Below, piece by piece: positions 1-52,822 of a stretch of 64,000 bases of DNA. Position numbers and translations under genes: made by a program. The stretch's first letter is position 1, and the number at the start of each line of letters is the position of its first letter. The DNA comes from Bacteroidota bacterium (GTDB taxonomy: Bacteria > Bacteroidota > Ignavibacteria > Kryptoniales > JAKASW01). Below the pieces are notes generated by a model, which worked only from the letters and a program-made list of their open reading frames with translations, was not told the origin of the DNA and made no database searches. The stretch covers positions 10,535 through 74,534 of the forward strand of contig JAJZVO010000014.1 of NCBI GenBank assembly GCA_021845665.1, read 5' to 3'.

Positions 1-26
1 CTCCACCGGCGAATAAGACTTCGGAT

Positions 27-6422: not shown

Positions 6423-8438
6423 TTGTTTATGGATGAGATAGTAGAAATAGTAACCGGCAATTTTGAAGAGATCACGAATCGATGGGCGGGAACGATCGGG
6501 TCATTCCCGAAATACTTCGGGAGTTCGCAAATTCCTTTTTTCAAGAGCCAGATTACCGAGCTGCTTCAGTGTATACTCGATCTATTGGAAGACCACGGCC
6601 CCTCGCGACTCGTGAAATTCACCGACCGAATCGTCAAACCGCCGTACAACGGATTGCTTACCCTGACGACGGTCCACGAGACATTTTTACTGGGAGAGGA
6701 TGCGATCCTCTCCGTCGTTCGTGAGAAGATGGTCGACAAGAACAAGCTTTTCGAGTATTCCCGAAGGATCGACGGCTGTTTCCACGAGATAATATACCAA
6801 TACGCCGCCGCTTACCAGACCTACCAGAGCGAAGTAGGCGCGACGCGGCGAAAAGTTATCGAGCGCCAGCGCGAGACGCTGCTGCGGTTCACCAGGGCGA
6901 TGGGTTCGGCAAATGCATACGATGATGCGCTAGGCGCGGCGGCTTTAATCATAAAGGAAGAGTCGAAAGCGAATGCCGTCGAGTTCTTCGCCTTCGATCA
7001 GAGTTCTCAGCAGCTTACATTCAGGTTCTCAATGCCCGAGAAAGGGCCAACAGCAAGCGGTGGATTCCTGAACGCACTCGCTGCGCAGTTTGCGGGCGAG
7101 GCCAGTGCGCGCCGGAGCTATGCCGTCATGCAGGAAATATTCGGCAACAGGCGATTGGTTGTCATGCTTCCCGTATCGGCCGGTGATTTTCTTCTCGGGC
7201 TCTTGCTTCTCGCTTATCCTTCCGTACCCCTCCGGGAGAGCAGCGTCGTTGATCTCCAGGAGGAGAGCATGAGCATCCTCCTCGCCATGGTGGACCAGCT
7301 CGGATATGGGCTGATGAAATTCCTTCTCGAAGGGGAAGTCACCTCCAGAGAGCACCACATTTCCATGTTGACGGATAATTCTGCAGATGCAATAATCGGC
7401 CTCGACGTAAGCGGAAAGATCGTCTCCTGGAATAAGGGAGCCGCTCTCCTTTTCGGCATCGAGCCCGACCAGGCTACGGGCCGACCGTTTTCAATTCTCC
7501 TTCCGCAGGAAAAGAGGCTGATCGGCGACGATGAAGTGATACTCAGACGGATTCACGATGAAGGCTCCGTAAAGAACTTCGAGCTCGACTGCGAGACGAT
7601 CTCCGGCCAGAGGATTATCGTCAGTCTCACCGGGACAGTTCTCAAAGACGAACACGGGACATTCATTGGAACTGCGCTCATCATGCGAGACGTGACGCAG
7701 CTGAAGCAGTACGAGATGGAATTGCGCCAGACCGAGAAACTTTCATTCATCGGCCAGATCTCGACCGGCATCGCACACGAGATAGGAACTCCGTTAAACA
7801 TAATACTGGGGAATGCCGAATACCTGATGATGGATGTGAAGGCCGGCGACAGGGACTACGATGAACTCAAGATGATCATCGGAGAAACAAACAGGATTGC
7901 GAAACTTATCCAGCAGCTTCTCGATTTCGCGCGGCCGAAGCGAATGAGATCGAAACCGGTTCTGTTGAACATTGAGATCGAGGGTGTCCTTCAGCTTCTG
8001 AAGAACCAACTTGATAAATCATCCATCAAACTCATGCTGAAACTTTCCGATGGGCTCCCTTATGTGTTCGGAGATGCGGCGCAACTCCAGGAAGTGTTCG
8101 TGAATTTGATAGTAAATGCCATCCATTCGATGGAAAAAGGTGGGGAACTCACCATCACGACCTCCGTGAACGGTGCCGCCGATAGTGGCACACTGGAGGT
8201 GGCGATAGCAGATACCGGCTGCGGTATACCCGAAGAAAATCTCCAGAAGATTTTTAACCCGTTTTTCACGACTAAGGAAGTGGGGAAAGGAACAGGTCTC
8301 GGTCTGGCGATTACTCAGAGGATCGTACAGGACCACAAAGGTACGATTGCAGTCGATAGCGCAGTCGGCACCGGAACGGTTTTCAGGCTGTCGTTCCCGA
8401 TATATACCGCCGAAACTCCACCAACAGGAAAGACTTAG
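6423..8438 (+). CDS. Cytoplasmic PAS sensor histidine kinase (NtrB/FlgS-like)
   Basis: PAS segment ([25 protein letters not shown]), H-box ([11 protein letters not shown]), N box (LIVNAIHSM), G boxes (DTGCGIP; [10 protein letters not shown]). No obvious transmembrane helix. An ATG at 6429 is an alternative start. Confidence 0.85.
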
Positions 8439-8501: not shown

Positions 8502-9866
8502 ATGAGAGCAGACATTTCAATACTTGCAGTTGACGATGATGTAAACATGCTCGCGATGCTCGAGAAGTTTCTGAAGCGCGCGGGCTACACCGTGGAGACC
8601 GTCTCCGACAGCATGAAGGCCATGACACTGGTTGATGATAAGAACTACGATATCGTGATTACAGATATCCAGATGCCGCGGGCATCGGGCATGGATCTTC
8701 TGAAAAGGGTAAAGGATCTTGAAAAAGATTCGATGGTCATCATGATAACCGCTTTCGGGTCGGTGGATTCCGCAGTCAATGCGATGAAAGCCGGCGCGTA
8801 TGACTATGTGAGCAAGCCATTCAATATCGACGAGATACTCGCCCTCCTCGAGCGCGCCACGCAGCAGCGCAGGCTCCAAAGGGAAGTCGAATTACTCCGC
8901 CAGGAAGTCGAACACAAGTACTCCTTCTCCAATATCATCGGGAAAAGCAAGCCGATGCAGGATATCTTCTCGCTTATACAGCGGATCTCTCACGCGAGGA
9001 GCAACATTCTCATAACCGGGCGGAGCGGGACGGGAAAAGAGCTTATCGCGAAGGCCATTCATTATAACAGCGACCGTAAGACAATGCCCCTCGTCACCGT
9101 GAACTGCAGCGCGATCCCCGAGTCGCTGCTGGAGAGCGAGCTGTTCGGACACGAGAAGGGTGCCTACACGGGAGCGATCACATCCAGACGCGGCCTCTTT
9201 GAGACGGCGAACGGCGGTACGCTTTTCCTCGATGAGATCGGAGACATGCCGCTCGGTTCCCAGGCCAAACTCCTGAGGGTCGTTGAGACGGGTGAAGTCA
9301 GGCCGGTCGGCAGCGACGACATCAAGAAGATCGATGTGCGCGTGATTGCCGCGACGCACCGAGATTTGAAGGAGATGGTAAAACACGATCAGTTCAGGGA
9401 AGACCTGTTTTACAGGCTCAACGTGATTTCGATACACGTGCCGGATCTCAAAGACAGAACTGAAGACATCCAAATTGTTACCGACCATTTCCTGAAGAAA
9501 TACGGGGAGCAATTCGGGAAACAAAATGTCCAGGTGACACACGAAGCGATGGCATGCCTGATGAGATATTCGTGGCCCGGAAACGTGCGCGAGCTTGAGA
9601 ACGTAATCGAGCGAAGCATAGCTTTGGCGGGGGGCGACGTAATTGACTGCAAGGACCTCCCCGAGCATCTTTTCCAGATGAAGTCGACGGACCTCATAGA
9701 CGATCTTGCCTCGGACAATATGCCGCTGTCGGAGGTCGAGAAGCGATACATCGTGAAGGTGCTTCAGCGGACCAACTGGCACCAGTCGAAGGCCGCACAG
9801 ATCCTCGGCATAGACAGGAAGACTCTTTACAGGAAGATCAAAGAGTATAACCTCATGCAAGGGTAG
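8502..9866 (+). CDS. NtrC-family sigma-54-dependent response regulator (REC-AAA+-Fis HTH)
   Basis: REC domain (VDDD..., ITDIQMP, SKPF). AAA+ domain with GRSGTGKE, ESELFGH, a GAYTGA loop and LFLDEIGDM. C-terminal HTH (AAQILGIDRKTLYRKIKEY). Confidence 0.9.
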   Translation: MRADISILAVDDDVNMLAMLEKFLKRAGYTVETVSDSMKAMTLVDDKNYDIVITDIQMPRASGMDLLKRVKDLEKDSMVIMITAFGSVDSAVNAMKAGAYDYVSKPFNIDEILALLERATQQRRLQREVELLRQEVEHKYSFSNIIGKSKPMQDIFSLIQRISHARSNILITGRSGTGKELIAKAIHYNSDRKTMPLVTVNCSAIPESLLESELFGHEKGAYTGAITSRRGLFETANGGTLFLDEIGDMPLGSQAKLLRVVETGEVRPVGSDDIKKIDVRVIAATHRDLKEMVKHDQFREDLFYRLNVISIHVPDLKDRTEDIQIVTDHFLKKYGEQFGKQNVQVTHEAMACLMRYSWPGNVRELENVIERSIALAGGDVIDCKDLPEHLFQMKSTDLIDDLASDNMPLSEVEKRYIVKVLQRTNWHQSKAAQILGIDRKTLYRKIKEYNLMQG

Positions 9867-11091: not shown

Positions 11092-11669
11092 TTTTCTTTG
11101 AATTCTTCGATGATCATCTTTGCCCTGAAAGTCTTTTTGTCATCCATTATCGATATTGGGTGAGGAAAATTCAAGATAATGGATCGATTCATGTTGAGAG
11201 TCCTCGTTTGAGACCGAACAAAAAGACAAATCTCTACCTGTCCCTCTTGACCTTTGTCGTGCACCGTTGACTTCTTTCCAGAATGTACCGAGGGGATGGT
11301 GGACTTCCTGAAGCAGCAAGCAACGAGATGCGAGATGCCGGGACGGGTCTGGATAAGCCGATTTTGGTTTCTCAACTGAGTCTGGTTTTCGGTGGCATCG
11401 ATATTGCTACCCGTCAAAAAAAACCGGGACAGTTCGGTTCGCTGTTGACATTCATTATGTAATTGCCGAGATTTTTTATGTAGTAAAAGTTGTACCGACA
11501 AAATCCGGGATACTCCGGACCAAAGAGTGTTGCAGTGTTCCGTGCAATGCTCTACTCACATACCCGTCTGATACCAGCGTTGCTTCGGGCAGCGGCAGGA
11601 GTGGTACTGATATCGATGTCGATGTATGACGACTTGACTATCGTGGTATCAAAGAAGGGAGGGTACGAA

Positions 11670-22949: not shown

Positions 22950-24881
22950 TCATTTCCTCCTGGAACCGTTTGAGTTGGAACCGTTTGAATGAGAGTCGGT
23001 CCTGTATGCGCTCTTCGTGATAGGGACAATCTTGCCGTTTTCCCTGACTCCATACGAGCTTCTTTCTTCCAGGTTTGAATCGAGATGGAACCGTTCGATA
23101 AGTTCACGCAGGTGTTCCGTCAGGCGATTCAGATTCTCGGCAGTTCTGGCCAAGTCCACCGTAGCCGCCGAGACATGCCCGGACACTGATGAGATGCTCT
23201 CGACGTTATGTGAAATCTGTTCGCTTGCAGACGACTGTTCTTCGCCGGCGGCGGCAATTTGATTGATCATGCCGACGACACCGTTCACCGAGGAGATTAT
23301 TTCGGAGAGGGATTCGGCAGCCTTGTCGGCGAGCTTCATTCCGTTTTCTGCTTCGGTGTTCCCCTCAGTCATGGCTAATACCACTTGCGTGGTCTCCTGC
23401 TGGATTCTCTTGATCATGCCTGCAATTTCTTTCGTTGCCGACGTGGTACGCTCCGCGAGTTTTCTGACTTCATCGGCGACGACTGCAAATCCGCGGCCTT
23501 GCTCGCCCGCTCTTGCCGCTTCAATAGCGGCGTTCAACGCCAGCAGGTTCGTCTGGTCTGCGATATCGTCAATCACCTGTATTATCTCACCTATCTGTGC
23601 ACTCGACTTACCGAGGGTATCGACTATCTCGGCAGACTTCTTCACAAGCTTGGCGATCTTTGTCATTCCTTCGATGGTTTCCTGGAAGACTTTTTCTCCC
23701 GCATTGGCAAGGTCGGATGCTTTTTTCGCCATACCGGCGGCTTCGTTCGCATTTTTTGAGGATTCTATGACGGTCTTGGACATTTGCTCGACTGCTGTGG
23801 CGACTTCACGGGTCTGGTTCGCCTGTTCGGCTGCGCCCGTCGACATTTCCTCGGCGGCAGATGAGATCTGCCCGGATGCTTCGGCCAGGGAATTCCCGGC
23901 GTGGTGTACCTCTCCGATCAGACCGTTCAGGTCGCGTATCATCTGGTTGACTTTTCCCATCAGAGCAGCCACTTCGTCGTTGTTTTCGATTGTGAGCTCT
24001 TTGGTGAGATCGCCTTTGGTTACTGCCTCCACGACATCGGATATTTTCTCGAATTGCTTTTTGAGATAGGTCTGTCTCTCTTCAGACTCTTGCTGCATTG
24101 ACTCCGCCAGTTTTCTCGCTTCCTCAGCCTGCTGGGTCTTCAAGTTTACTTCGTCGAGCGCTTTCTTACTGTTTTCAATCATTATGTTGAACGATGCCGC
24201 CAACTGACCTATTTCATCTCCCTGATTAAGATCGACCCGTACATCGAAATCGCCCGCGGCAACCTTTTGAACGGACTGTTTGAGCAAATCCACGGGCAGA
24301 ATTACCGTTTTTCGTACCAGGTACATCGCCACCATTCCGAAGAAGCCAAACAACAGAAATATGAAAACGGAAATCAGAATGCTGGTCGTGTTTTCAGATG
24401 ACAGAGACTGAGAAGAGATCGCGACCGAAACATAGCCGAGGAGCTGATGAGTGTTTTTGTTTTCGACCTTGACAGTCGAAATGGCGACGGGGGTCCCGTC
24501 GTTCATACTTGCGCTTTTGACGGTTCCTGCCATTGCGAGGGGATTCAGGTTCGACAGTTTGATAGAACTGTAATCGAGTTGAGCGAGCGTTTGGCCGGAA
24601 GGTGTGAAGAACGCACCGGCCACAGCATCGCCGGCACCGACGAGGTTGCGCAGCGCGTCCGAGAGGCCGGACGAATCGCTCATCATGAGACCAAATTGTG
24701 ATTGTGCGCCGACCGCCTGAGCAAGGAGGCTGGCTTTGTCGTTCAGCTGCCGCTCCGAAACGCCGACAGAGTATCTCGAGTAGACAAAAACGAGCGTCCA
24801 AGCAAATAGGATAAACGATATGAGAAGGATGGAAAATTTCCGTCGCAGCCGAATGTTCGCGATTCGTTGGTTAGTGTTCAT
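22950..24881 (-). CDS. Methyl-accepting chemotaxis protein with ~150-aa periplasmic domain and HAMP
   Basis: TM1 ([19 protein letters not shown]), a periplasmic segment, TM2, HAMP ([21 protein letters not shown]), and the MCP tip ([43 protein letters not shown]). Confidence 0.9.
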
Positions 24882-24890
24882 CTTGAATCC

Positions 24891-25460
24891 TCAGTTTGAT
24901 GCCAAAACTTGTGTGACCGAAGCATACTTTTCCGGGACCTTGAGTCCAAGTGCATTAAGAGTCTTTTGATTCACGTAGAGCTTTGTATTTCCGCCGTCGG
25001 TGACTACAGCCGCGCATGCTCCCTCTGAGACCCAGGAGGTATTCGGTGCAAAGAGAGGAATCCCCTGTAAGGCGGCGTTTTTTATGAGGTAATCCCGGGC
25101 GATAGAACTCCCGATCAAGCTGCTGTTCTGGATGACCCAAAGGGCCTGAACATGGTAACTCCCGGTGAGATCCCGAAACTGCGCCGCTACATCAGGGAGC
25201 GCCTCAACATCCGCAAGAACGATCTTCACTCCGAAGGATGCGGAAGCTCTCTTTACCTGGTTAAGCAGATTCCCGTTGTTGTCTGCGGACTGTTTGTAGA
25301 TCAGCCCAACTGTCTTTACCTGTGGCAGCATTTGTTTTATCATGAATAATGATTGCAGCGGTGTTGCGTTCGACTCCAGTGCCTCAGGTGTGCCGAAAAA
25401 AGCGGCTGATATTAGCAACACTAAGGAAAGCTGGACGGCTATCTTTTTGAGCAAGTGCAT
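24891..25460 (-). CDS. Secreted single-lobe periplasmic-binding-protein-like protein (ABC_sub_bind-like, half length)
   Basis: Signal peptide (LLKKIAVQLSLVLLISAAFF). The rest resembles one lobe of ABC-type substrate-binding proteins (KTVGLIYKQS..., ALWVIQNSSLIG..., GIPLFAPNTSWVSEGA). It is the first gene of the che operon, 9 nt upstream of the MCP gene. Confidence 0.5.
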   Translation of the reverse strand: MHLLKKIAVQLSLVLLISAAFFGTPEALESNATPLQSLFMIKQMLPQVKTVGLIYKQSADNNGNLLNQVKRASASFGVKIVLADVEALPDVAAQFRDLTGSYHVQALWVIQNSSLIGSSIARDYLIKNAALQGIPLFAPNTSWVSEGACAAVVTDGGNTKLYVNQKTLNALGLKVPEKYASVTQVLASN

Positions 25461-25830
25461 CTGGACGCTTCCTTTGTTTTCTTGTTAAGGCCATTTCCAT
25501 TGTTTTCATTTCGTACTGAAGAGAGCAAGCTATTCAAGCCCCCTCGCTCTCTTATAAGAGAATGACATTGCAATCGGGAGTATGTGCGCGATTGCCACGG
25601 ACTTCACGCATTGATATTTCACTTTGCGTTCCTCTTTGAAAGAGCGTTCACCGAAGATGGTTCTTCCATCGGTACCATCGATTTCATCTCTCCCGGAATA
25701 AATGCGCTTATAGCTTCGGCAATATTTGCAGACGCAGAGTCTTGCGACCTCCCCCGGTGACGCAAAGCCATCGGTCCAGCGCTGCGATGAATTATAAACA
25801 TCGTGTCCATACTCCTTCGTGCTTTCAATC

Positions 25831-25846
25831 ACAATCGGCGTGCCAC
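25831..25846 (-). promoter_or_regulatory. Candidate sigma-54 (-24/-12) promoter for the chemotaxis operon
   Basis: The minus strand reads GTGGCACGCCGATTGT, i.e. TGGCACG-N4-TTGT against the consensus TGGCACG-N4-TTGCW. It lies ~370 nt upstream of the first che-operon start codon (25460). Confidence 0.5.
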
Positions 25847-25993
25847 TTTTATTCTTCGGATTTTGGAACGCAATCGATAGTGAGGGCTTAATTTTCCCGG
25901 AAATGGAGGAATATTAGCCAGTAGGTTGAATAATAATCGCCATATATAGGAAGGGCCGGGGAAGGTTCAAGGCCAGGGCATCGGACGGATAAG

Positions 25994-26008
25994 GTTGACG
26001 ATGTCAAC
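25994..26008. promoter_or_regulatory. Perfect 15-bp palindrome GTTGAC-GAT-GTCAAC, a candidate activator (UAS) site between divergent promoters
   Basis: Read directly from the sequence. Its centre (26001) is ~156 bp from the minus-strand -24 element and ~141 bp from the plus-strand -24 element. A second imperfect inverted repeat, TGACG-N8-CGTCA, lies at 26024-26041. Confidence 0.4.
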
Positions 26009-26141
26009 TCTAACTAATGATCGTGACGGCAGCGGTCGTCAGATGAAGTCCGCGGCTGGCGAATAGTGAACAACGATGGAGAATATTGAGCAAGCGACGG
26101 AGGGATGCATCAATTTCCCGCCCGGATTCAACCATCGGAGT

Positions 26142-26156
26142 TGGCACAGACGTTGA
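26142..26156 (+). promoter_or_regulatory. Candidate sigma-54 (-24/-12) promoter for the flagellar super-operon
   Basis: TGGCACAGACGTTGA, i.e. TGGCAC-N5-TTGA against the consensus TGGCAC-N5-TTGC. The predicted TSS (~26167) lies just upstream of AGGAG (26175-26179) and the ATG at 26187. Confidence 0.55.
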
Positions 26157-26186
26157 TTTAGTTGCGGAGAGCATAGGAGCGTTGGT

Positions 26187-26321
26187 ATGAATAGATATCT
26201 GGTAATGGTTTCGTTGATTGCTTTCGCTTACACGCTGGCGATATTCATAACCGGTACTCAGGATGCCGAAGATATATCAGCGGAGACGGACGAAGAGATG
26301 GAAAACCACTTAGGAGTCTGA
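26187..26321 (+). CDS. 44-aa small membrane protein, putative first cistron of the flagellar operon (below the ORF-track cutoff)
   Basis: My own translation is MNRYLVMVSLIAFAYTLAIFITGTQDAEDISAETDEEMENHLGV. AGGAG lies 7 nt upstream. It has one TM helix plus an acidic tail. Its stop is 2 nt before the flgB ATG, and its last codons (TTAGGAGTC) supply the flgB SD. Confidence 0.45.
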   Translation: MNRYLVMVSLIAFAYTLAIFITGTQDAEDISAETDEEMENHLGV

Positions 26322-26323
26322 AG

Positions 26324-27212: not shown

Positions 27213-27482
27213 ATGAAGGTTGGTTCAATTTCAAGTATGGGTTATTCGCCGGTATCACAGAAAGAGCCTGCAAGGAGTCCCAAGCTGGCGGCTCCGGAAC
27301 AGAAATCTCAGGCAACAGCAGGAACATCTGTCAATCATGGCGGCCTCACTAACGCCGAGCGTGCCTTCTTTGCGAAGCTCTTTCCTGAATCGTCTTCGCA
27401 GATACATGCTCATTCAACTTATTCACCCAGCGGCATTCATGCTTCCGTGGAGCCGGGACAAATTATAAATAGGAAGGTTTAA
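27213..27482 (+). CDS. Hypothetical 89-aa protein inserted between flgC and fliE
   Basis: GAGGAG SD lies 4-5 nt before the ATG. The stop is 1 nt before the fliE ATG and its 3' end carries the fliE SD (AGGAAGG). The protein is S/P/A-rich with no recognised family. Confidence 0.55.
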   Translation: MKVGSISSMGYSPVSQKEPARSPKLAAPEQKSQATAGTSVNHGGLTNAERAFFAKLFPESSSQIHAHSTYSPSGIHASVEPGQIINRKV

Positions 27483-38871: not shown

Positions 38872-38957
38872 TCTAGTCCGAACGGAATTCCGGCCTGAAT
38901 CTCGATGAATCCGCCCGGACCGGCAGTGCACTCCCCCGCCTTTTCGAGATGTCTGAT

Positions 38958-38986
38958 AATATTGTTCACTTGCTCAATATTGTTCA
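38958..38986 (+). repeat. Direct repeat AATATTGTTCA x2 (18-bp register) in the flbD-fliL gap
   Basis: The 11-mer occurs at 38958-38968 and 38976-38986, read directly from the sequence. Confidence 0.6.
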
Positions 38987-39039: not shown

Positions 39040-39054
39040 TGGTACCGGCATAGC
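39040..39054 (+). promoter_or_regulatory. Weak candidate sigma-54-type promoter upstream of fliL
   Basis: TGGTACCGGCATAGC keeps the exact GG-N10-GC spacing (TGGtAC-N5-TaGC against TGGCAC-N5-TTGC). It is 57 nt upstream of the fliL ATG. Confidence 0.3.
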
Positions 39055-39110
39055 TCTTGACTAAGTAAGGTTGTGAAAACCAAAAAGAATGAAGCAGAGG
39101 CTAAATAGAG

Positions 39111-47575: not shown

Positions 47576-48392
47576 TCAGGCAGTAAGATTGAGAGAAGTG
47601 GTGAACGCCCAGACAGCTGTGACACAAATCGGAAATCAGCCTCACAAGATCAGCGTGGTAAGCGGAAAAGGAGGAGTCGGGAAAAGCAATATAGCTCTCA
47701 ATCTCGGGATAGCTTTGGCCCGGCACGGCGCGCGCGTTCTGCTGGTCGACGGCAACGTCAACCTTTCGAATCTCGATATCCTGTCAGGTGTCTCTCCGAA
47801 TTTCAGACTCTTCGATGTGATTGAAGGGAAGGTCGGGCTCCGGGAGGCGGTTGCGGAAATTTCTCCGAACGTGTTCCTTTTGGCAGGCATGTCCGACGGG
47901 ACGCTTAAGAAGCTCGGTTCCGGAGATGCGGCGGCTTTCTTCAGGGAAGTGAAGCTCGCTGAGCCGGCATTTCATTACGCAGTAATCGACACTGCCGGCG
48001 GCATAGTGCAGGAGTCCATATCCCTCGCCCTTCTCTCAGACGAAGTCCTTGTGGTCTCTACACCTGAACCTACGGCGGTCATGGATGCTTATGTGCTGGT
48101 CAAGGCGATCAAGAGGATCAATTCGAGTGCCGACCTCAGGCTCCTGATAAACAGGGCGAAGAGCGCAGAAGAGGCGGACGAAGTGAGATCGAAATTCGAC
48201 ATGGTCAGCGAGCATTTTCTCAATCTCAAGATCGATTACGCCGGTTTCATACCTTCTGATGAATCGGTCGAGAAAGCGGTAAGCTTCCAGGTTCCGTTCT
48301 TGAAAGAATTTCCCGATTCGGCGTCATCAAAGGCGCTCGGCTCGATCGCGGAACGCATCCTGGCAAAAGGGTCATTCAGGAAAAAGCCGTGA
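47553..48392 (+). CDS. flhG: MinD/ParA-type ATPase FlhG (FleN/YlxH)
   Basis: Deviant Walker A (VVSGKGGVGKSNIALNLG) and Walker B (AVIDTAGG). Follows flhF. An alternative ATG start lies at 47568. Confidence 0.88.
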   Translation: MESKPMLDQAVRLREVVNAQTAVTQIGNQPHKISVVSGKGGVGKSNIALNLGIALARHGARVLLVDGNVNLSNLDILSGVSPNFRLFDVIEGKVGLREAVAEISPNVFLLAGMSDGTLKKLGSGDAAAFFREVKLAEPAFHYAVIDTAGGIVQESISLALLSDEVLVVSTPEPTAVMDAYVLVKAIKRINSSADLRLLINRAKSAEEADEVRSKFDMVSEHFLNLKIDYAGFIPSDESVEKAVSFQVPFLKEFPDSASSKALGSIAERILAKGSFRKKP

Positions 48393-48661
48393 TGGACAAG
48401 CTTGGAACAAAAATACCGACGCTTGTTTTCTTCCTTGGGGTGGTCTATTTCGCCTCGGACGGGTACGGCGTGGTCGATGCGATAGTAAGGGCTTTCATGG
48501 TTGCGTTCGGTGTCGCCCTGATTATCCTGTTATTCACAATGCTACTGATGTTCTTCCTGACTCTTCAGAAGAACAGATCGGAAACCGTGAAAATACCTGC
48601 GGCAGATCAGCACGTCCAAACTGCACAGCTGCAGAGCAAGAAAGTTGAGATGCAATCATGA
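48389..48661 (+). CDS. Hypothetical 90-aa two-TM membrane protein between flhG and fliA
   Basis: ATGA/ATGA overlaps with both neighbours. Two hydrophobic helices (IPTLVFFLGVVYF; FMVAFGVALIILLFTMLLMFFL) and a polar tail. Confidence 0.55.
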   Translation: MMDKLGTKIPTLVFFLGVVYFASDGYGVVDAIVRAFMVAFGVALIILLFTMLLMFFLTLQKNRSETVKIPAADQHVQTAQLQSKKVEMQS

Positions 48662-49386
48662 CAACTCAAGAACTCTGGGAAAAGTACTCCAGGCGCAAGA
48701 CGGCGGCAGTGAAGAAAGACCTCGTGCTTTCTTACATGAATCTCGTCAAATATGCAGCCCGTGCAATCAACCTTCCGTCGAAGTGTGTGTTCGATACTGA
48801 TGACCTGATGAGCATAGGTATAATCGGGCTCGTCGAGGCGATAGAGAGGTTCGATCCGAAGCGTGGAGTCAAGTTCGAAACGTTTGCGTCCCAGAGAATT
48901 CGGGGTGTCATGCTGGACGAGATCAGGAAAGTTGACTGGCTTCCGAGGTCCGTCCGCGACAAATACAAGAAAGCATTCAAATCGCTTAGCGAGCTCGATA
49001 TGGACAGCGTCAACGGCGAGAAATACGCCCGGGCGATAAACATGAGCATTAGCGAATTTGAGCAGATCAAGGGCTACCTGGCCAATGCAGAAGCGGTTTC
49101 ACTTACCAGGGTGATCGGCGAAGACATGACGCTGGAAGACGTGATAGGAAGCGACAGCGAGGTCATCGAGCAGTTCGAAGATGAGGAATTGAAGGAACAT
49201 CTGGTGAAAAGTCTGAAACAGCTGGCCGATAGGGAACGCATGGTGGTTACTCTTTACTATTACGAGGAACTCACTTTCAAAGAAATCGGAAAAGTCCTTG
49301 GGATCAGCGAATCGCGCGTGTCCCAAATACACTCGGAAGTGATATCGAAATTGAAAGAGCAGTTTAGAAAGGTTGTTGAACTATGA
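48658..49386 (+). CDS. fliA: Flagellar sigma factor FliA (sigma-28)
   Basis: Region 2 (LMSIGIIGLVEAIERFDP..GVKFETFASQRIRGVMLDEIRK), region 3, and region 4.2 (RERMVVTLYYYEELTFKEIGKVLGISESRVSQIHSEVISKLK). Confidence 0.92.
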   Translation: MTTQELWEKYSRRKTAAVKKDLVLSYMNLVKYAARAINLPSKCVFDTDDLMSIGIIGLVEAIERFDPKRGVKFETFASQRIRGVMLDEIRKVDWLPRSVRDKYKKAFKSLSELDMDSVNGEKYARAINMSISEFEQIKGYLANAEAVSLTRVIGEDMTLEDVIGSDSEVIEQFEDEELKEHLVKSLKQLADRERMVVTLYYYEELTFKEIGKVLGISESRVSQIHSEVISKLKEQFRKVVEL

Positions 49387-50549
49387 TAGGGGTTGGACAA
49401 TTGACTGACAAGTTATCGACGATAAAAGATTTGCCGACATTTCCGACGACCGCGTTGGAAGTCATGCGGCTTGCCAGTGACTCCGACAGCAGTGCCGCCG
49501 AGCTGGCGAGGATAATATCGAGAGACCCTTCGCTCGCGACCAAGATACTCCGGGTCGCCAATTCACCCTATTACGGCTTCGTCAGAAAGATTTCGACGAT
49601 CGAATGGGCAATCGTGGCGCTCGGGTTCGAGACTCTCAGGGAGACCATCCTTTCTCTCACGGTCATCGACTTGTTTAAGGGCGGTCCGACGAAGGATTTT
49701 GACCCGCGTAAATTCTGGAAGCATGCTGTCGATACCGCCTCTGCCGCGAGGACTCTCGCACGTGAGGCGAAATACAGGATCCCGGGCGAAGCGTACGCAT
49801 CGGGTTTGCTCCACGACGTAGGAACGCTCGTGCTTTACAGATATTTCCAGGAAGATTTCGCTGAAATCTTAAAACTTGTGAATGAAGAAAGCGTGCAACT
49901 TTCCCAGGCAGAAGTCGTGGTCACGGGGACGACGCACGGTGAAATCGGCGCGTGGCTCGCCGCCAAATGGGGTTTTCCACCCTACCTGGTCGAGGCAATC
50001 AAATTCCATCACTCACCTGCGTTTTCGGAAGTGAATCCTGAGCTGACTTCGATCGTCCACGCAGCAAGTCTCATAGCCTCTTCGGTGGGTTACTCCTGCG
50101 CGGATCAACCGGTGAGGTTCGATACCATGGCGATAAAGTATCTGGGGATAGAACGACTTGCCCCTCCGATGAGAGTTCTCGCCTCAAAATATATCAATGA
50201 CGATAACACGAGTCTCATAAAGATCCGCGTTCCGGTGACGGATTACGCTCCGGGAAACGAACCCGATATTCCCACGGCTGAGCCGGATGATGAACCTGGA
50301 GACGAAGTGGATGATGGCACTCTGAAGAGATTCTTCAAAGATGCAATAAAGCTGCTTCCCTCCACTGAAAGACTCGTTTTGACTCTCAAGCTATACGAGG
50401 GGCTTGAACTAAGGCAGGTAGCGACCGTGCTCGGCTACGAGGAAGCAAAGGTCGCGGAGTATTACAAAAACGCAATATCCGCACTCCAGCAGATGGCTGA
50501 GCGCGCGATACTAACGAATAGGTTGAACCAATGGAAAATGAGATTCTAA
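49383..50549 (+). CDS. HDOD-domain protein fused to a C-terminal sigma-70 region-4-like HTH domain
   Basis: HDOD covers aa ~15-235 (LPTFPTTALEVMRLASD..., ILRVANSPYYGF, GLLHDVGTLVL, THGEIGAWLAAKWGFP, AIKFHH). An acidic linker follows (PDIPTAEPDDEPGDEVDD). Then LPSTERLVLTLKLYEGLELRQVATVLGYEEAKVAEYYKNAISALQQ, which parallels FliA region 4.2 in the preceding gene. Confidence 0.8.
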   Translation: MIGVGQLTDKLSTIKDLPTFPTTALEVMRLASDSDSSAAELARIISRDPSLATKILRVANSPYYGFVRKISTIEWAIVALGFETLRETILSLTVIDLFKGGPTKDFDPRKFWKHAVDTASAARTLAREAKYRIPGEAYASGLLHDVGTLVLYRYFQEDFAEILKLVNEESVQLSQAEVVVTGTTHGEIGAWLAAKWGFPPYLVEAIKFHHSPAFSEVNPELTSIVHAASLIASSVGYSCADQPVRFDTMAIKYLGIERLAPPMRVLASKYINDDNTSLIKIRVPVTDYAPGNEPDIPTAEPDDEPGDEVDDGTLKRFFKDAIKLLPSTERLVLTLKLYEGLELRQVATVLGYEEAKVAEYYKNAISALQQMAERAILTNRLNQWKMRF

Positions 50550-51391
50550 AGGAAAAAGTACAAAACATTATTCAGCTTCCCGCACTTCCCACAATTGCGG
50601 TAGAGGTTGCTTCTCTCATTGACAATCCGAACACGAGTGTCTCCAAGCTCACAAGTGTCATTTCTGCCGACCAGGTTCTGACTGCCAAGGTCCTTAAGAT
50701 AGCAAACTCGCCGTTTTACGGATTTCAAAGGAAAATATCGACGCTCGATTTCGCTATCATGGTTCTCGGCTTCGATTCACTGAAGGAAATCCTCATCAGC
50801 ATTTCGCTGATAAGCGCCTTCAAGAAGAAGCAGGATAAGTATTTTAATTCGAAAGAATTCTGGGAGCATTCGCTGGCAACAGGCATTGCCGCTCGTACTC
50901 TTGCCAGGCAACTCGGCTACCGGATAAGCGGTGAGTCGTTCGTGGCAGGGCTTATCCACGACATCGGTATCCTGGTGACACATCAGTATTTCCACGAGGA
51001 TTATAAACATATCGTGGATGCAGTCACCGGCGGGAGGGCTTCCTTCCAGGATATGGAAGAGACGGTACTATTTGCCACACATGGTGACATCGGGGCGTGG
51101 CTCGCCGAACGATGGAACCTGCCCGAGCAACTGATCGAAGCCATCAAATACCATCACAAGCCGGGACTTGCCGAAAGGAATCCTCAGCTGACCGCATTGA
51201 TTCATTTTGTCGATTATCTCTGCCATAAACTCGGCATTGGAGCGCTCTCGTACGAGAAGGTCCAGGCATACGATCCCGAATCGTTGAGGATTCTCAATAT
51301 TTCCGAAGCCGAAATAACCGAGGCGTTTTACGAGTCCTTCGGTTCGAAACTTCGCGAAGATCTTGAGCGGACTTTCGTGAATATCATCTGA
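50531..51391 (+). CDS. HDOD-domain protein (stand-alone paralogue)
   Basis: LPALPTIAVEVASLIDN..., VLKIANSPFYGF, GLIHDIGILVT, THGDIGAWLAERWNLP, AIKYHH. Confidence 0.85.
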   Translation: MENEILKEKVQNIIQLPALPTIAVEVASLIDNPNTSVSKLTSVISADQVLTAKVLKIANSPFYGFQRKISTLDFAIMVLGFDSLKEILISISLISAFKKKQDKYFNSKEFWEHSLATGIAARTLARQLGYRISGESFVAGLIHDIGILVTHQYFHEDYKHIVDAVTGGRASFQDMEETVLFATHGDIGAWLAERWNLPEQLIEAIKYHHKPGLAERNPQLTALIHFVDYLCHKLGIGALSYEKVQAYDPESLRILNISEAEITEAFYESFGSKLREDLERTFVNII

Positions 51392-51412
51392 TCTGTTTAC
51401 CCGGAGATAAAA

Positions 51413-52822
51413 ATGAAAAATGAAGAGATAGAAGAGAACAATATTAAGATGGGGAGCACAAAACCGCAGTCCCATGCCGTGGCTGAAAGTATTGAACGAT
51501 TCATGGAGACCCGCGAATCGTACATACATGCGCTCGAAAGCACCGTCCAATTGTTCAAGATGAAACTGGAGTTCCATGAGAAAACCGAAACAGACATCAA
51601 GCAATCGCTGGACGAGGTGTTTGCGATGCAAAGACTTGCAAACACAATAAGTACTGCCACCGATCCGGTCTCCGTCTTAGATTCTCTCCTTGAACTTACA
51701 CGGCAAGTGGTCCCGGTTGAAGAGAGCATGATATTCGAAATGGGAGCCTCAAGGTCCCAGACTAAACCTTTTCTTTCCACATGCTCGGACTATATGCTCA
51801 AAGCTTCACAGCACCTCCTTGAAGAAGGCATTCTCGATTGGGTCATAGAGCAGAAGAAGACAACGGTGGTCCCGGATCTGAATGCCTCGATGGCGGAGGC
51901 CGGGCAGAGAAACTTCGTGGTCGTTCCTCTCACGCTCCGCAACGAAGCCATCGGAGTATATATCATACGCACCGGCAGCGTTCGGAAGGCTTTCACCGAC
52001 CACGAGCTGATGTTGCTTGGAATTCTCTCGAACCAGGCGGCCGTCGCAATCGAGAATCTTCACAACATAAGGAAACTTCTGGACGCGACCGAGGAGCTGA
52101 AAAAATCGCAGTCCCAGATGCTTCAGGCCGCTAAACTTGCATCACTCGGAGAACTGGCAGGTGGCATCGCTCACGAAATCAACAACCCTCTGCAAATACT
52201 CCTCGGCCATATCGCTCTCCTTCAGCAGGGAAAAGATGTCGAACACAGGATCGAGATAATCAGGAACCAGGTGCAGAGAATCTCCCAGATTACCCGCCAG
52301 CTTGTCTCATTCTCCAGAAGCGTGCCCGACGAACTGAATCACGAATTGGTAAACATCAATTGGGCCTTAAATGAAATCATCGCTCTCGTGGACTACCAGT
52401 TCAAGAACCGCGGCATCGAGTTCGATCTGCGTCTTTCGGAAGGAATTCCTCCTCTCGACTCGAATAAGAACTACATGCAGCAGGCTTTCCTAAATCTTCT
52501 GATAAATGCGAAAGACGCGATGCCTAACGGAGGAAAGTTGATCATTTCGACGGAGTTTGTAAATGGTAAGCTAAACATACGCTTCACCGATTCAGGATCC
52601 GGCATAAAAAAAGAAAATCTCGTCAAGATATTCGAACCGTTCTTCACCACGAAGGAACCTGGAAAAGGCACGGGGCTCGGCCTTCCCATCACTAGAGGGA
52701 TCGTAAGGAAATTCGGCGGCGACATCAAAGTTGACAGCACCGAAGGCCAGGGCACCACTCTTTCAATCATAATCCCGGTCAACAGAACCGGCGGCCCGAT
52801 CAGCGGAGGTAATATTCAATGA
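51413..52822 (+). CDS. Cytoplasmic GAF-domain sensor histidine kinase (orphan)
   Basis: GAF-like region (VLDSLLELTRQVVPVEESMIFEM..., NFVVVPLTLRNEAIGVYII), H-box (GIAHEINNPLQ), N box (LLINAKDAM), G boxes (DSGSGI; [10 protein letters not shown]). No TM helix. Confidence 0.85.
   Translation: MKNEEIEENNIKMGSTKPQSHAVAESIERFMETRESYIHALESTVQLFKMKLEFHEKTETDIKQSLDEVFAMQRLANTISTATDPVSVLDSLLELTRQVVPVEESMIFEMGASRSQTKPFLSTCSDYMLKASQHLLEEGILDWVIEQKKTTVVPDLNASMAEAGQRNFVVVPLTLRNEAIGVYIIRTGSVRKAFTDHELMLLGILSNQAAVAIENLHNIRKLLDATEELKKSQSQMLQAAKLASLGELAGGIAHEINNPLQILLGHIALLQQGKDVEHRIEIIRNQVQRISQITRQLVSFSRSVPDELNHELVNINWALNEIIALVDYQFKNRGIEFDLRLSEGIPPLDSNKNYMQQAFLNLLINAKDAMPNGGKLIISTEFVNGKLNIRFTDSGSGIKKENLVKIFEPFFTTKEPGKGTGLGLPITRGIVRKFGGDIKVDSTEGQGTTLSIIIPVNRTGGPISGGNIQ

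Follow-up and report, generated by a model that had tools for sequence, protein, structure and literature searches.

The divergent gap, its flanking operons and its relatives

The window, by which we mean the whole 64-kb stretch of DNA that was analysed, contains an 863-bp gap (25461-26323) with a chemotaxis operon on the minus strand on one side and a flagellar operon on the plus strand on the other. The che operon encodes an ABC_sub_bind-like protein of 189 aa, an MCP, CheW, a PAS-MCP, FapA, a HEAT protein, CheR, two CheY proteins, a CheZ-like protein, CheA and CheB. The flagellar operon starts with an ORF of 44 aa, continues with flgB, flgC, fliE and fliF, and runs onward via flhA, flhF, flhG and fliA to csrA.

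We compared the gap with its counterparts in related genomes. The comparison set consisted of 12 independent homologous gaps, in which the gene order was identical on both sides and the FlgB identity ranged from 55% to 94%; locus L014 was left out as a duplicate of L005. The closest relative was L001 (94% FlgB identity), and the FlgB matches were labelled as 'Bacteroidetes bacterium' MAGs, Candidatus Kryptoniota and Candidatus Kryptobacter. These matches assign the DNA to an uncultured, Kryptoniota-like lineage within the FCB group. Assemblies with this cluster are GCA_021794075.1, GCA_027401045.1, GCA_046705025.1 and GCA_052915765.1, and it is also present on the 2.98-Mb contig ERZ25039481:contig_24171. 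As the genomes are phylogenetically related, the conservation counts reported for these 12 gaps represent non-independent events. The gap was mostly unalignable between distant members of the set, with discrete blocks that were nearly invariant.

The flagellar transcription unit opens with the 44-aa ORF (MNRYLVMVSLIAFAYTLAIFITGTQDAEDISAETDEEMENHLGV, 26187-26321, plus strand), and 2 nt separate its stop codon from the ATG of flgB. The encoded protein is hydrophobic at its N-terminus and acidic in its tail. The ORF belongs to no Pfam or NCBIfam family, and a gene of 42-46 aa was called in its place in every relative. The product may represent a hitherto undescribed small membrane protein associated with flagella.

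On the che side, the first ORF past the promoter described below is 63 aa long (25619-25810, minus strand), and only its start (M.T..I.H) was conserved. In more distant relatives, the first gene of the che operon encodes a protein of 126-127 aa (MKTILIHE.D.EL..AWA...; L007 1100-1480, L010 1112-1492, L011 1097-1477 and L013 897-1280) with weak, sub-threshold matches to Response_reg (E = 1e-4 to 0.06). Only the first codons of this receiver-like gene survive in the window, L001, L002 and L006. The remainder of the gene in the window sublineage, ~350 nt (window 25461-25810), showed no tblastn similarity and contained inconsistent ORFs. Judging from these comparisons, the 63-aa ORF is a decayed remnant of the receiver-like gene. 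An Rfam search of the 350-nt che leader and of the whole window yielded no hit above the gathering thresholds, and the matches at E <= 5 were noise. A 100-aa ORF that overlaps the che promoter (25530-25832) was rejected as not real: it matched no Pfam family, and stop codons disrupt its frame in the relative with 94% identity.

Further genes of the two operons had features of their own. The 189-aa protein of the che operon (24891-25460, minus strand) matched the middle part only of an ABC substrate-binding fold (PF04392, profile positions 121-233), and a gene for a HAMP-MCP (window 22950-24881, minus strand) lay directly after it in 12 of 12 genomes. This protein may have evolved from a binding protein and serve the chemoreceptor as a sensory partner. 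In the flagellar operon, an 89-aa ORF without a Pfam or NCBIfam family is located between flgC and fliE (27213-27482, plus strand), and a gene of 88-110 aa occupied its place in the flgC-fliE interval of all relatives. Past flhF and flhG, the region 48389-52822 (plus strand) encodes a family-less 90-aa ORF, FliA, two HDOD-domain proteins and a GAF histidine kinase. One of the HDOD proteins has a sigma-70 region-4-like tail. The HDOD proteins and the kinase are embedded in the flagellar cluster.

Sigma-54-type promoters at the gap and upstream of fliL

The gap carries a sigma-54-type promoter on each strand. The che-side element, TGGCACGCCGATTGT, reads from 25845 to 25831 on the minus strand (25831-25845) and has GG at -25/-24, TTG at -15 to -13 and T in place of C at -12. 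The flgB-side element, TGGCACAGACGTTGA, lies at 26142-26156 on the plus strand and has A in place of C at -12. The pattern TGGCACN5TTGW (TGGCACNNNNNTTGW) was matched at these two sites only (two matches versus 0.13 expected in 128 kb of scanned strand).

The promoters were conserved among the relatives. Each of the 12 genomes had exactly one GGCAY-N5-TTG element per strand of the gap, pointing outward. The che-side form, yGGCAC-N5-TTG(T/A), was kept in 12 of 12 genomes; the flgB-side form, yyGGCAyA..CsTTG followed by A (11 cases) or T (one case), was found in 12 of 12 genomes and, additionally, in the partial locus L004. On the che side, the internal spacer varied among genomes and the two blocks were constant, as is expected of a -24/-12 promoter. 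The relative L008 has a shorter gap (1326-2000, 675 bp), in which the flgB-side promoter is located 324 nt upstream of flgB, compared with ~183 nt elsewhere, and the sequence 3' of that promoter is unlike that in the other genomes.

The che-side promoter is located 21 nt upstream of the conserved ATG at 25810, a distance of ~20 nt across relatives. The 5' leader predicted from this placement is just ~8-10 nt long and, in most relatives, has no Shine-Dalgarno sequence. On the flgB side, the -12 base is followed after 31 nt by the start codon (ATG) of the 44-aa ORF, and the interval contains a conserved Shine-Dalgarno stretch (AAGGAGCGTTGG). An alignment of the minus side of 11 genomes revealed a conserved block, AAwTyCGAwGA (25852-25866, minus strand, ~-30 to -45), that directly adjoins the che promoter on its upstream side. 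Possibilities for this block include a bend or architectural-protein site and an extended promoter contact. A weaker, GGATT-like conservation was seen at a comparable position on the flgB side.

A third promoter of the same class was found upstream of fliL. This element, CGGCATAGCTCTTGA (39046-39060, plus strand), is an intergenic match to GGCAYN5TTG that lies in a 240-bp gap and points at fliL. In an alignment of four genomes, CGGCATAG..CTTGA was invariant. The register initially suggested by the position weight matrix (PWM) for this site (39040-39055) was wrong, as conservation places the element at 39046-39060. For all three sites (che, flgB and fliL), the distance to the start codon was 20-52 nt and the element was oriented toward its gene. 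Across the window, four of the six matches to GGCAYN5TTG were intergenic (intergenic sequence being 3.4% of the DNA) versus ~0.12 expected, and each of the four points at the next gene. The fourth intergenic match, TGGCATCGATATTGCT (11393-11408, plus strand), is canonical and represents the best canonical sigma-54 site of the window (PWM score 15.0); it is located in a 578-bp gap that precedes a zinc-finger gene with weak similarity to DksA/TraR and a likely start at ~11670.

Scored with an approximate PWM for canonical sigma-54 sites, the che-side and flgB-side sites reached 10.3 and 9.7 and ranked 5th and 8th in 128 kb, with intragenic matches that were equal or better. On the PWM alone, this result formally counts against the promoters by the standard of the earlier note, which had proposed a comparison with hits inside coding sequence. 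The background-level scores are explained by the absence of the -12 C from both sites, and the sites were rescued by conservation.

Scans for other promoter classes gave no competing candidate in the gap. The sigma-70 pattern TTGACA-16..18-TATAAT, a consensus that may not be that of the host phylum, was not matched in 25461-26186; three weak matches to it all fell in flanking coding sequence. A relaxed regular expression for sigma-28 promoters, TAAA-N14-16-(G)CCGATAA, matched neither the gap nor any intergenic position of the window in the correct orientation. GCCGAT in the spacer between the -24 and -12 blocks of the che promoter and GGCGAwTA in the dyads described below were considered as sigma-28 elements and discarded, as no TAAA was present at the right distance and the letters were not conserved.

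Two genes for sigma-54 activators were identified in the window, both with complete Sigma54_activat, AAA_lid and HTH_8 domains: one at 1411-2574 and one encoding a response regulator at 8502-9866 (plus strand). The latter adjoins a gene for a PAS histidine kinase (6423-8438), and its product has GAYTGA in place of the canonical GAFTGA sigma-54 contact loop. Assignment of this regulator to a flagellar subfamily was rejected: it fell below every NCBIfam equivalog cut-off, and AtoC, NtrC and ZraR models scored above FlgR and FlbD. Its FlbD score was 329 bits against a cut-off of 750. The rpoN gene was not found in the 64-kb window; the two activator genes are an indirect indication that the genome has one.

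Back-to-back sigma-54-type promoters had been proposed for the gap in the earlier note, and this part of its reading was supported. It is backed by the single outward element per strand in 12 of 12 genomes and the fixed short distances to the start codons, and also by the lack of a competing sigma-70- or sigma-28-like consensus in the gap and the presence of two sigma-54 activator genes in the window.

The base at -12 was consistently non-canonical. Among 28 instances of the motility promoters (three promoters in up to 12 genomes), the base at -12 was A in 19 and T in nine; C and G did not occur. The same 28 instances all contained GGCA(C/T), and T-15, T-14, G-13 and the spacing between the -24 and -12 elements were invariant across them. 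In contrast, the site at 11393-11408 of the same window reads TTGC. The -12 C is among the most conserved positions of sigma-54 promoters and constitutes a strong consensus, not an absolute requirement.

Sites of comparable form are known from Escherichia coli. Among the sites detected by sigma-54 ChIP-seq in that species, one with TTGT is the confirmed pspG promoter (TTGGCATGATTCTTGTA), and another reads ...TTGAT (Bonocora et al. 2015, PMC4591121, Table 1). The GGCAT-N5-TTGT/TTGA architecture is bound by sigma-54 in E. coli, and pspG is confirmed to be activator-dependent (PMC4591121). However, sites with a base other than C at -12 are rare exceptions there, whereas here all three promoters regularly have A or T at this position (28/28).

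Tandem dyads and the central palindrome

The conserved element upstream of the promoters was a 16-bp dyad, TGNNNAWTAKTNNNCA, usually present as a tandem pair and forming nearly invariant islands in the relatives. On the flgB side, the enhancer-like module spans 26057-26092 (plus strand) and consists of B1 (TGGCGAATAGTGAACA, 26057-26072) and B2 (TGGAGAATATTGAGCA, 26077-26092), both of which match the dyad pattern. This module was nearly invariant among the 12 genomes. The che-side module (25905-25942, minus strand), also conserved in the relatives, consists of A1 (TGGCGATTATTATTCA, 25942 to 25927) and A2 (TGGCTAATATTCCTCC, 25920 to 25905); A2 is off the pattern by one mismatch in the window genome. 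Upstream of fliL, the module at 38953-38986 (plus strand) comprises a half-dyad (AATATTGTTCA, 38958-38968) and a full dyad (TGCTCAATATTGTTCA, 38971-38986), and TAATATT..CCAC.TG..CAATATT was conserved in four genomes. An initial reading of the conserved letters as direct repeats, TGGnGAwTAkT with a spacing of 20-22 bp, was superseded after the fliL copies had been added, as the 16-bp dyad fitted better.

The dyads were confined to the three promoters. In the 64 kb, TGNNNAWTAKTNNNCA occurred at four sites (six strand matches) versus 0.41 expected, all of them upstream of the che, flgB and fliL promoters, and it matched the corresponding places in every relative. No AATATT dyad was found upstream of the canonical site at 11393-11408, and that site therefore probably answers to an activator other than that of the motility promoters.

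We measured the distance between the promoter-proximal AATATT core and the -24 GG. On the flgB side, it was 61 bp in nine genomes, 62 bp in one and 94 bp in two; on the che side, it was 69-72 bp in all 12 genomes; and at fliL, it was 71 bp. The distances 61, 71 and 94 bp differ by approximately one and three helical turns. The modules lie ~85-125 bp upstream of the predicted transcription start, and the face of the helix that they occupy is conserved. In symmetry, tandem arrangement, position and helical phasing, the dyads fit the layout of upstream activating sequences (UAS) of the NtrC/NifA type, which are commonly tandem sites ~80-150 bp upstream of the start. The che-side and flgB-side modules have the same orientation relative to their own promoters; therefore, the gap can be described as an inverted duplication of a unit made up of tandem dyads and a promoter, arranged around a variable spacer.

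The centre of the gap had been given a different role in the earlier note. All four motifs named there were found where it had placed them: the two promoters at 25845 to 25831 and 26142-26156, GTTGACGATGTCAAC at 25994-26008, and TGACG-N8-CGTCA at 26024-26041. The description of GTTGACGATGTCAAC as a perfect 15-bp palindrome was accurate in position only, as the element consists of 6-bp arms (GTTGAC/GTCAAC) around a non-symmetric 3-bp spacer (GAT). The note had proposed that a single activator bound at this central palindrome, possibly together with the second repeat, serves both promoters as a shared UAS. We consider this extremely improbable. The palindrome is indeed roughly equidistant from the two -24 elements, and the distances of 156 and 141 bp, which the note gave correctly, are compatible with an enhancer. 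However, such repeats were present in the gap at chance frequency: four inverted repeats had arm lengths of >= 6 bp and a spacer of <= 10 bp, versus 2.3 +/- 1.8 in shuffled sequences, and 12 with 5-bp arms, versus 8.8 +/- 3.6. In L001, the 94%-identical relative, the palindrome reads GTTGACGAGGTCACC and the second repeat ends in ...CGTCG, so that a single substitution breaks each of them. The palindrome was absent in L002 and L005, nothing comparable was present in the other relatives, and no recurrent inverted repeat was found in the central spacers of the relatives. The central spacer itself was unconserved and varied from 105 to 382 bp among genomes, and strongly conserved alternative sites are available on both of its flanks. 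On this comparative evidence, the central palindrome is a chance inverted repeat with no conserved role.

Regulatory model and comparison with known systems

The motifs, their conservation, their geometry and spacing, and the exclusivity of the dyads to three places were observed directly, and the three promoters were inferred to depend on sigma-54. The explanation that we favour, and regard as probable from the sequence comparisons, is a classical motility regulon controlled by sigma-54 and an enhancer-binding protein, with one enhancer module per promoter. The missing C at -12 in all 28 instances, the background-level PWM scores, the very short che leader and the lack of a match of the local activator to flagellar NCBIfam models weigh against it. 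Transcription is predicted to start near 25819 (minus strand), 26168 (plus strand) and 39072 (plus strand). The che-side promoter would drive the remnant ORF and the genes for the ABC_sub_bind-like protein, MCP, CheW and so on to CheA and CheB, and the flgB-side promoter would drive the 44-aa ORF, flgB, flgC, fliE, fliF and the genes onward. Sigma-54 RNA polymerase would sit on each promoter as a closed complex. The tandem dyads would be bound by a dimeric helix-turn-helix activator, which would then oligomerise; DNA looping would bring the activator to the polymerase, and ATP would be used for promoter opening. The activator would most likely be of the NtrC type, for example, the response regulator 8502-9866 acting with the PAS kinase 6423-8438. 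The identification of the dyad-binding protein as an NtrC-type activator is likewise a deduction, for which the HTH_8 proteins encoded at 8502-9866 and 1411-2574 are candidates.

In such a regulon, one regulator would co-activate the chemotaxis and flagellar genes via three separate sites. The suggestion of the earlier note that one activator works in both directions thus stays plausible, but it would do so from separate copies of the dyad and not from a shared site. The note had also suggested that about 51 kb of motility genes could be switched on from the gap. Because a third promoter-plus-dyad module is located upstream of fliL, the flagellar side has at least one internal promoter, and its 38 kb do not form one unit that relies on the gap alone.

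Two other explanations keep parts of the evidence but read them differently. The GGCAY-N5-TTGW elements could be sigma-54 promoters while the dyads bind a repressor, an anti-activator, a nucleoid or architectural protein, or an indirect master regulator. An AT-rich AATATT core is typical of the sites of many helix-turn-helix repressors and nucleoid proteins, the dyads did not match the known flagellar activator motifs considered (FleQ box, FlbD ftr, NtrC and NifA), and the local activator is of a generic NtrC/AtoC type. Nevertheless, a repressor site more usually overlaps the promoter, whereas symmetric sites in tandem, placed at -85 to -125 and phased relative to -24, constitute a classic enhancer layout, and we regard a non-enhancer role of the dyads as unlikely.

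The other explanation questions the promoters themselves. The two-block elements might be recognised by another sigma factor or by a transcription factor, with transcription starting from housekeeping promoters of the FCB type that our scans missed. The housekeeping sigma factor of Bacteroidota relatives uses an unusual consensus, and the consensus used in the scans may not be that of Kryptoniota; C is never present at -12, the canonical PWM scores are mediocre, and a conserved T-rich block adjoins the che element. Against this, GGCAY, exactly 5 nt and TTG are the letters and spacing of sigma-54 promoters and of nothing else known. Moreover, the che-side spacer varies while the blocks do not, a canonical TGGCAT-N5-TTGCT is present in another intergenic region of the window, activator genes are present in the window, and both the TTGT and TTGA variants are bound by sigma-54 in E. 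coli (PMC4591121). This makes recognition by a factor other than sigma-54 very improbable.

A bolder extension of the favoured regulon concerns the -12 base. The motility regulon of Kryptoniota could use a dedicated subclass of sigma-54 promoters, GGCAY-N5-TTG(A/T), in which C at -12 is selected against and which is coupled to the undescribed dyad TG-N3-AATATT-N3-CA. We consider this speculative and distinctly unlikely. If it were true, an altered fork-junction contact at -12 might result in a distinct mode of activation, with a lower barrier or partial independence of the activator; alternatively, the promoters might be recognised by a specialised sigma-54 or by a specialised pair of sigma-54 and activator. 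In either case, the regulon would provide a natural test of what the -12 element does. On its own, the consistent presence of A or T at -12 amounts to a modest curiosity.

The favoured regulon resembles several known systems. Control of flagellar genes by sigma-54 via upstream enhancers is textbook knowledge in Proteobacteria and Campylobacterota. In Caulobacter crescentus, FlbD bound to ftr enhancers controls the flagellar promoters of class III, among them the divergent pair flaN/flbG. Shared with that system are divergent sigma-54 flagellar promoters, enhancers ~100 bp upstream and, in the regulon proposed here, one activator of the NtrC family for several operons. The differences are that ftr is unrelated to TGNNNAWTAKTNNNCA, that the Caulobacter promoters have the canonical GC at -12, that each promoter here has its own tandem dyad pair with a variable spacer between the modules, and that the local activator falls far below the FlbD NCBIfam cut-off.

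Vibrio and Pseudomonas have a four-tier hierarchy consisting of FlrA/FleQ, FlrBC/FleSR with sigma-54, and then FliA. In Campylobacter and Helicobacter, FlgSR and sigma-54 control a rod and hook regulon, and the FlgR of Campylobacter needs no DNA binding. Operons for the rod and basal body that are led by flgB and controlled by sigma-54 and an NtrC-type two-component regulator are common to these systems and the locus as interpreted here, as is the presence of fliA in a cluster adjoining flhF and flhG. In those bacteria, however, che genes are usually sigma-28-dependent, whereas the che operon here has a sigma-54-type promoter, and the dyad motif differs from the FleQ box.

A parallel in layout is given by the tandem NtrC sites at glnAp2 and the NifA UAS, TGT-N10-ACA, which are bound by dimers that oligomerise. 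Like these, the dyads described here are symmetric sites of 16-17 bp that often occur in tandem, with a sigma-54-type promoter ~100 bp downstream. They differ in sequence, TG-N3-AWTAKT-N3-CA with an AT-rich core, and are candidate sites for an enhancer-binding protein.

A literature search on flagellar regulation and sigma-54 in Kryptonia/Kryptoniota or Ignavibacteria found nothing relevant; by the same search, control of flagella by sigma-54 and enhancers has not been described for Kryptoniota or their FCB-group neighbours, known only from metagenomes. The mechanism proposed here is of a well-known kind, and what is new is the lineage, the sequence of the dyad and the uniform A or T at -12. 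The locus also offers a caution, as the striking palindrome at its centre turned out to be noise and it took phylogenetic footprinting to reveal the real sites. The -12 variants constitute a natural set for studies of the sigma-54 mechanism. The testable yield is a cis-regulatory map of three promoters with a defined 16-bp enhancer-like dyad and a consistent non-canonical base at -12, and this map could seed the prediction of the regulon across the phylum.
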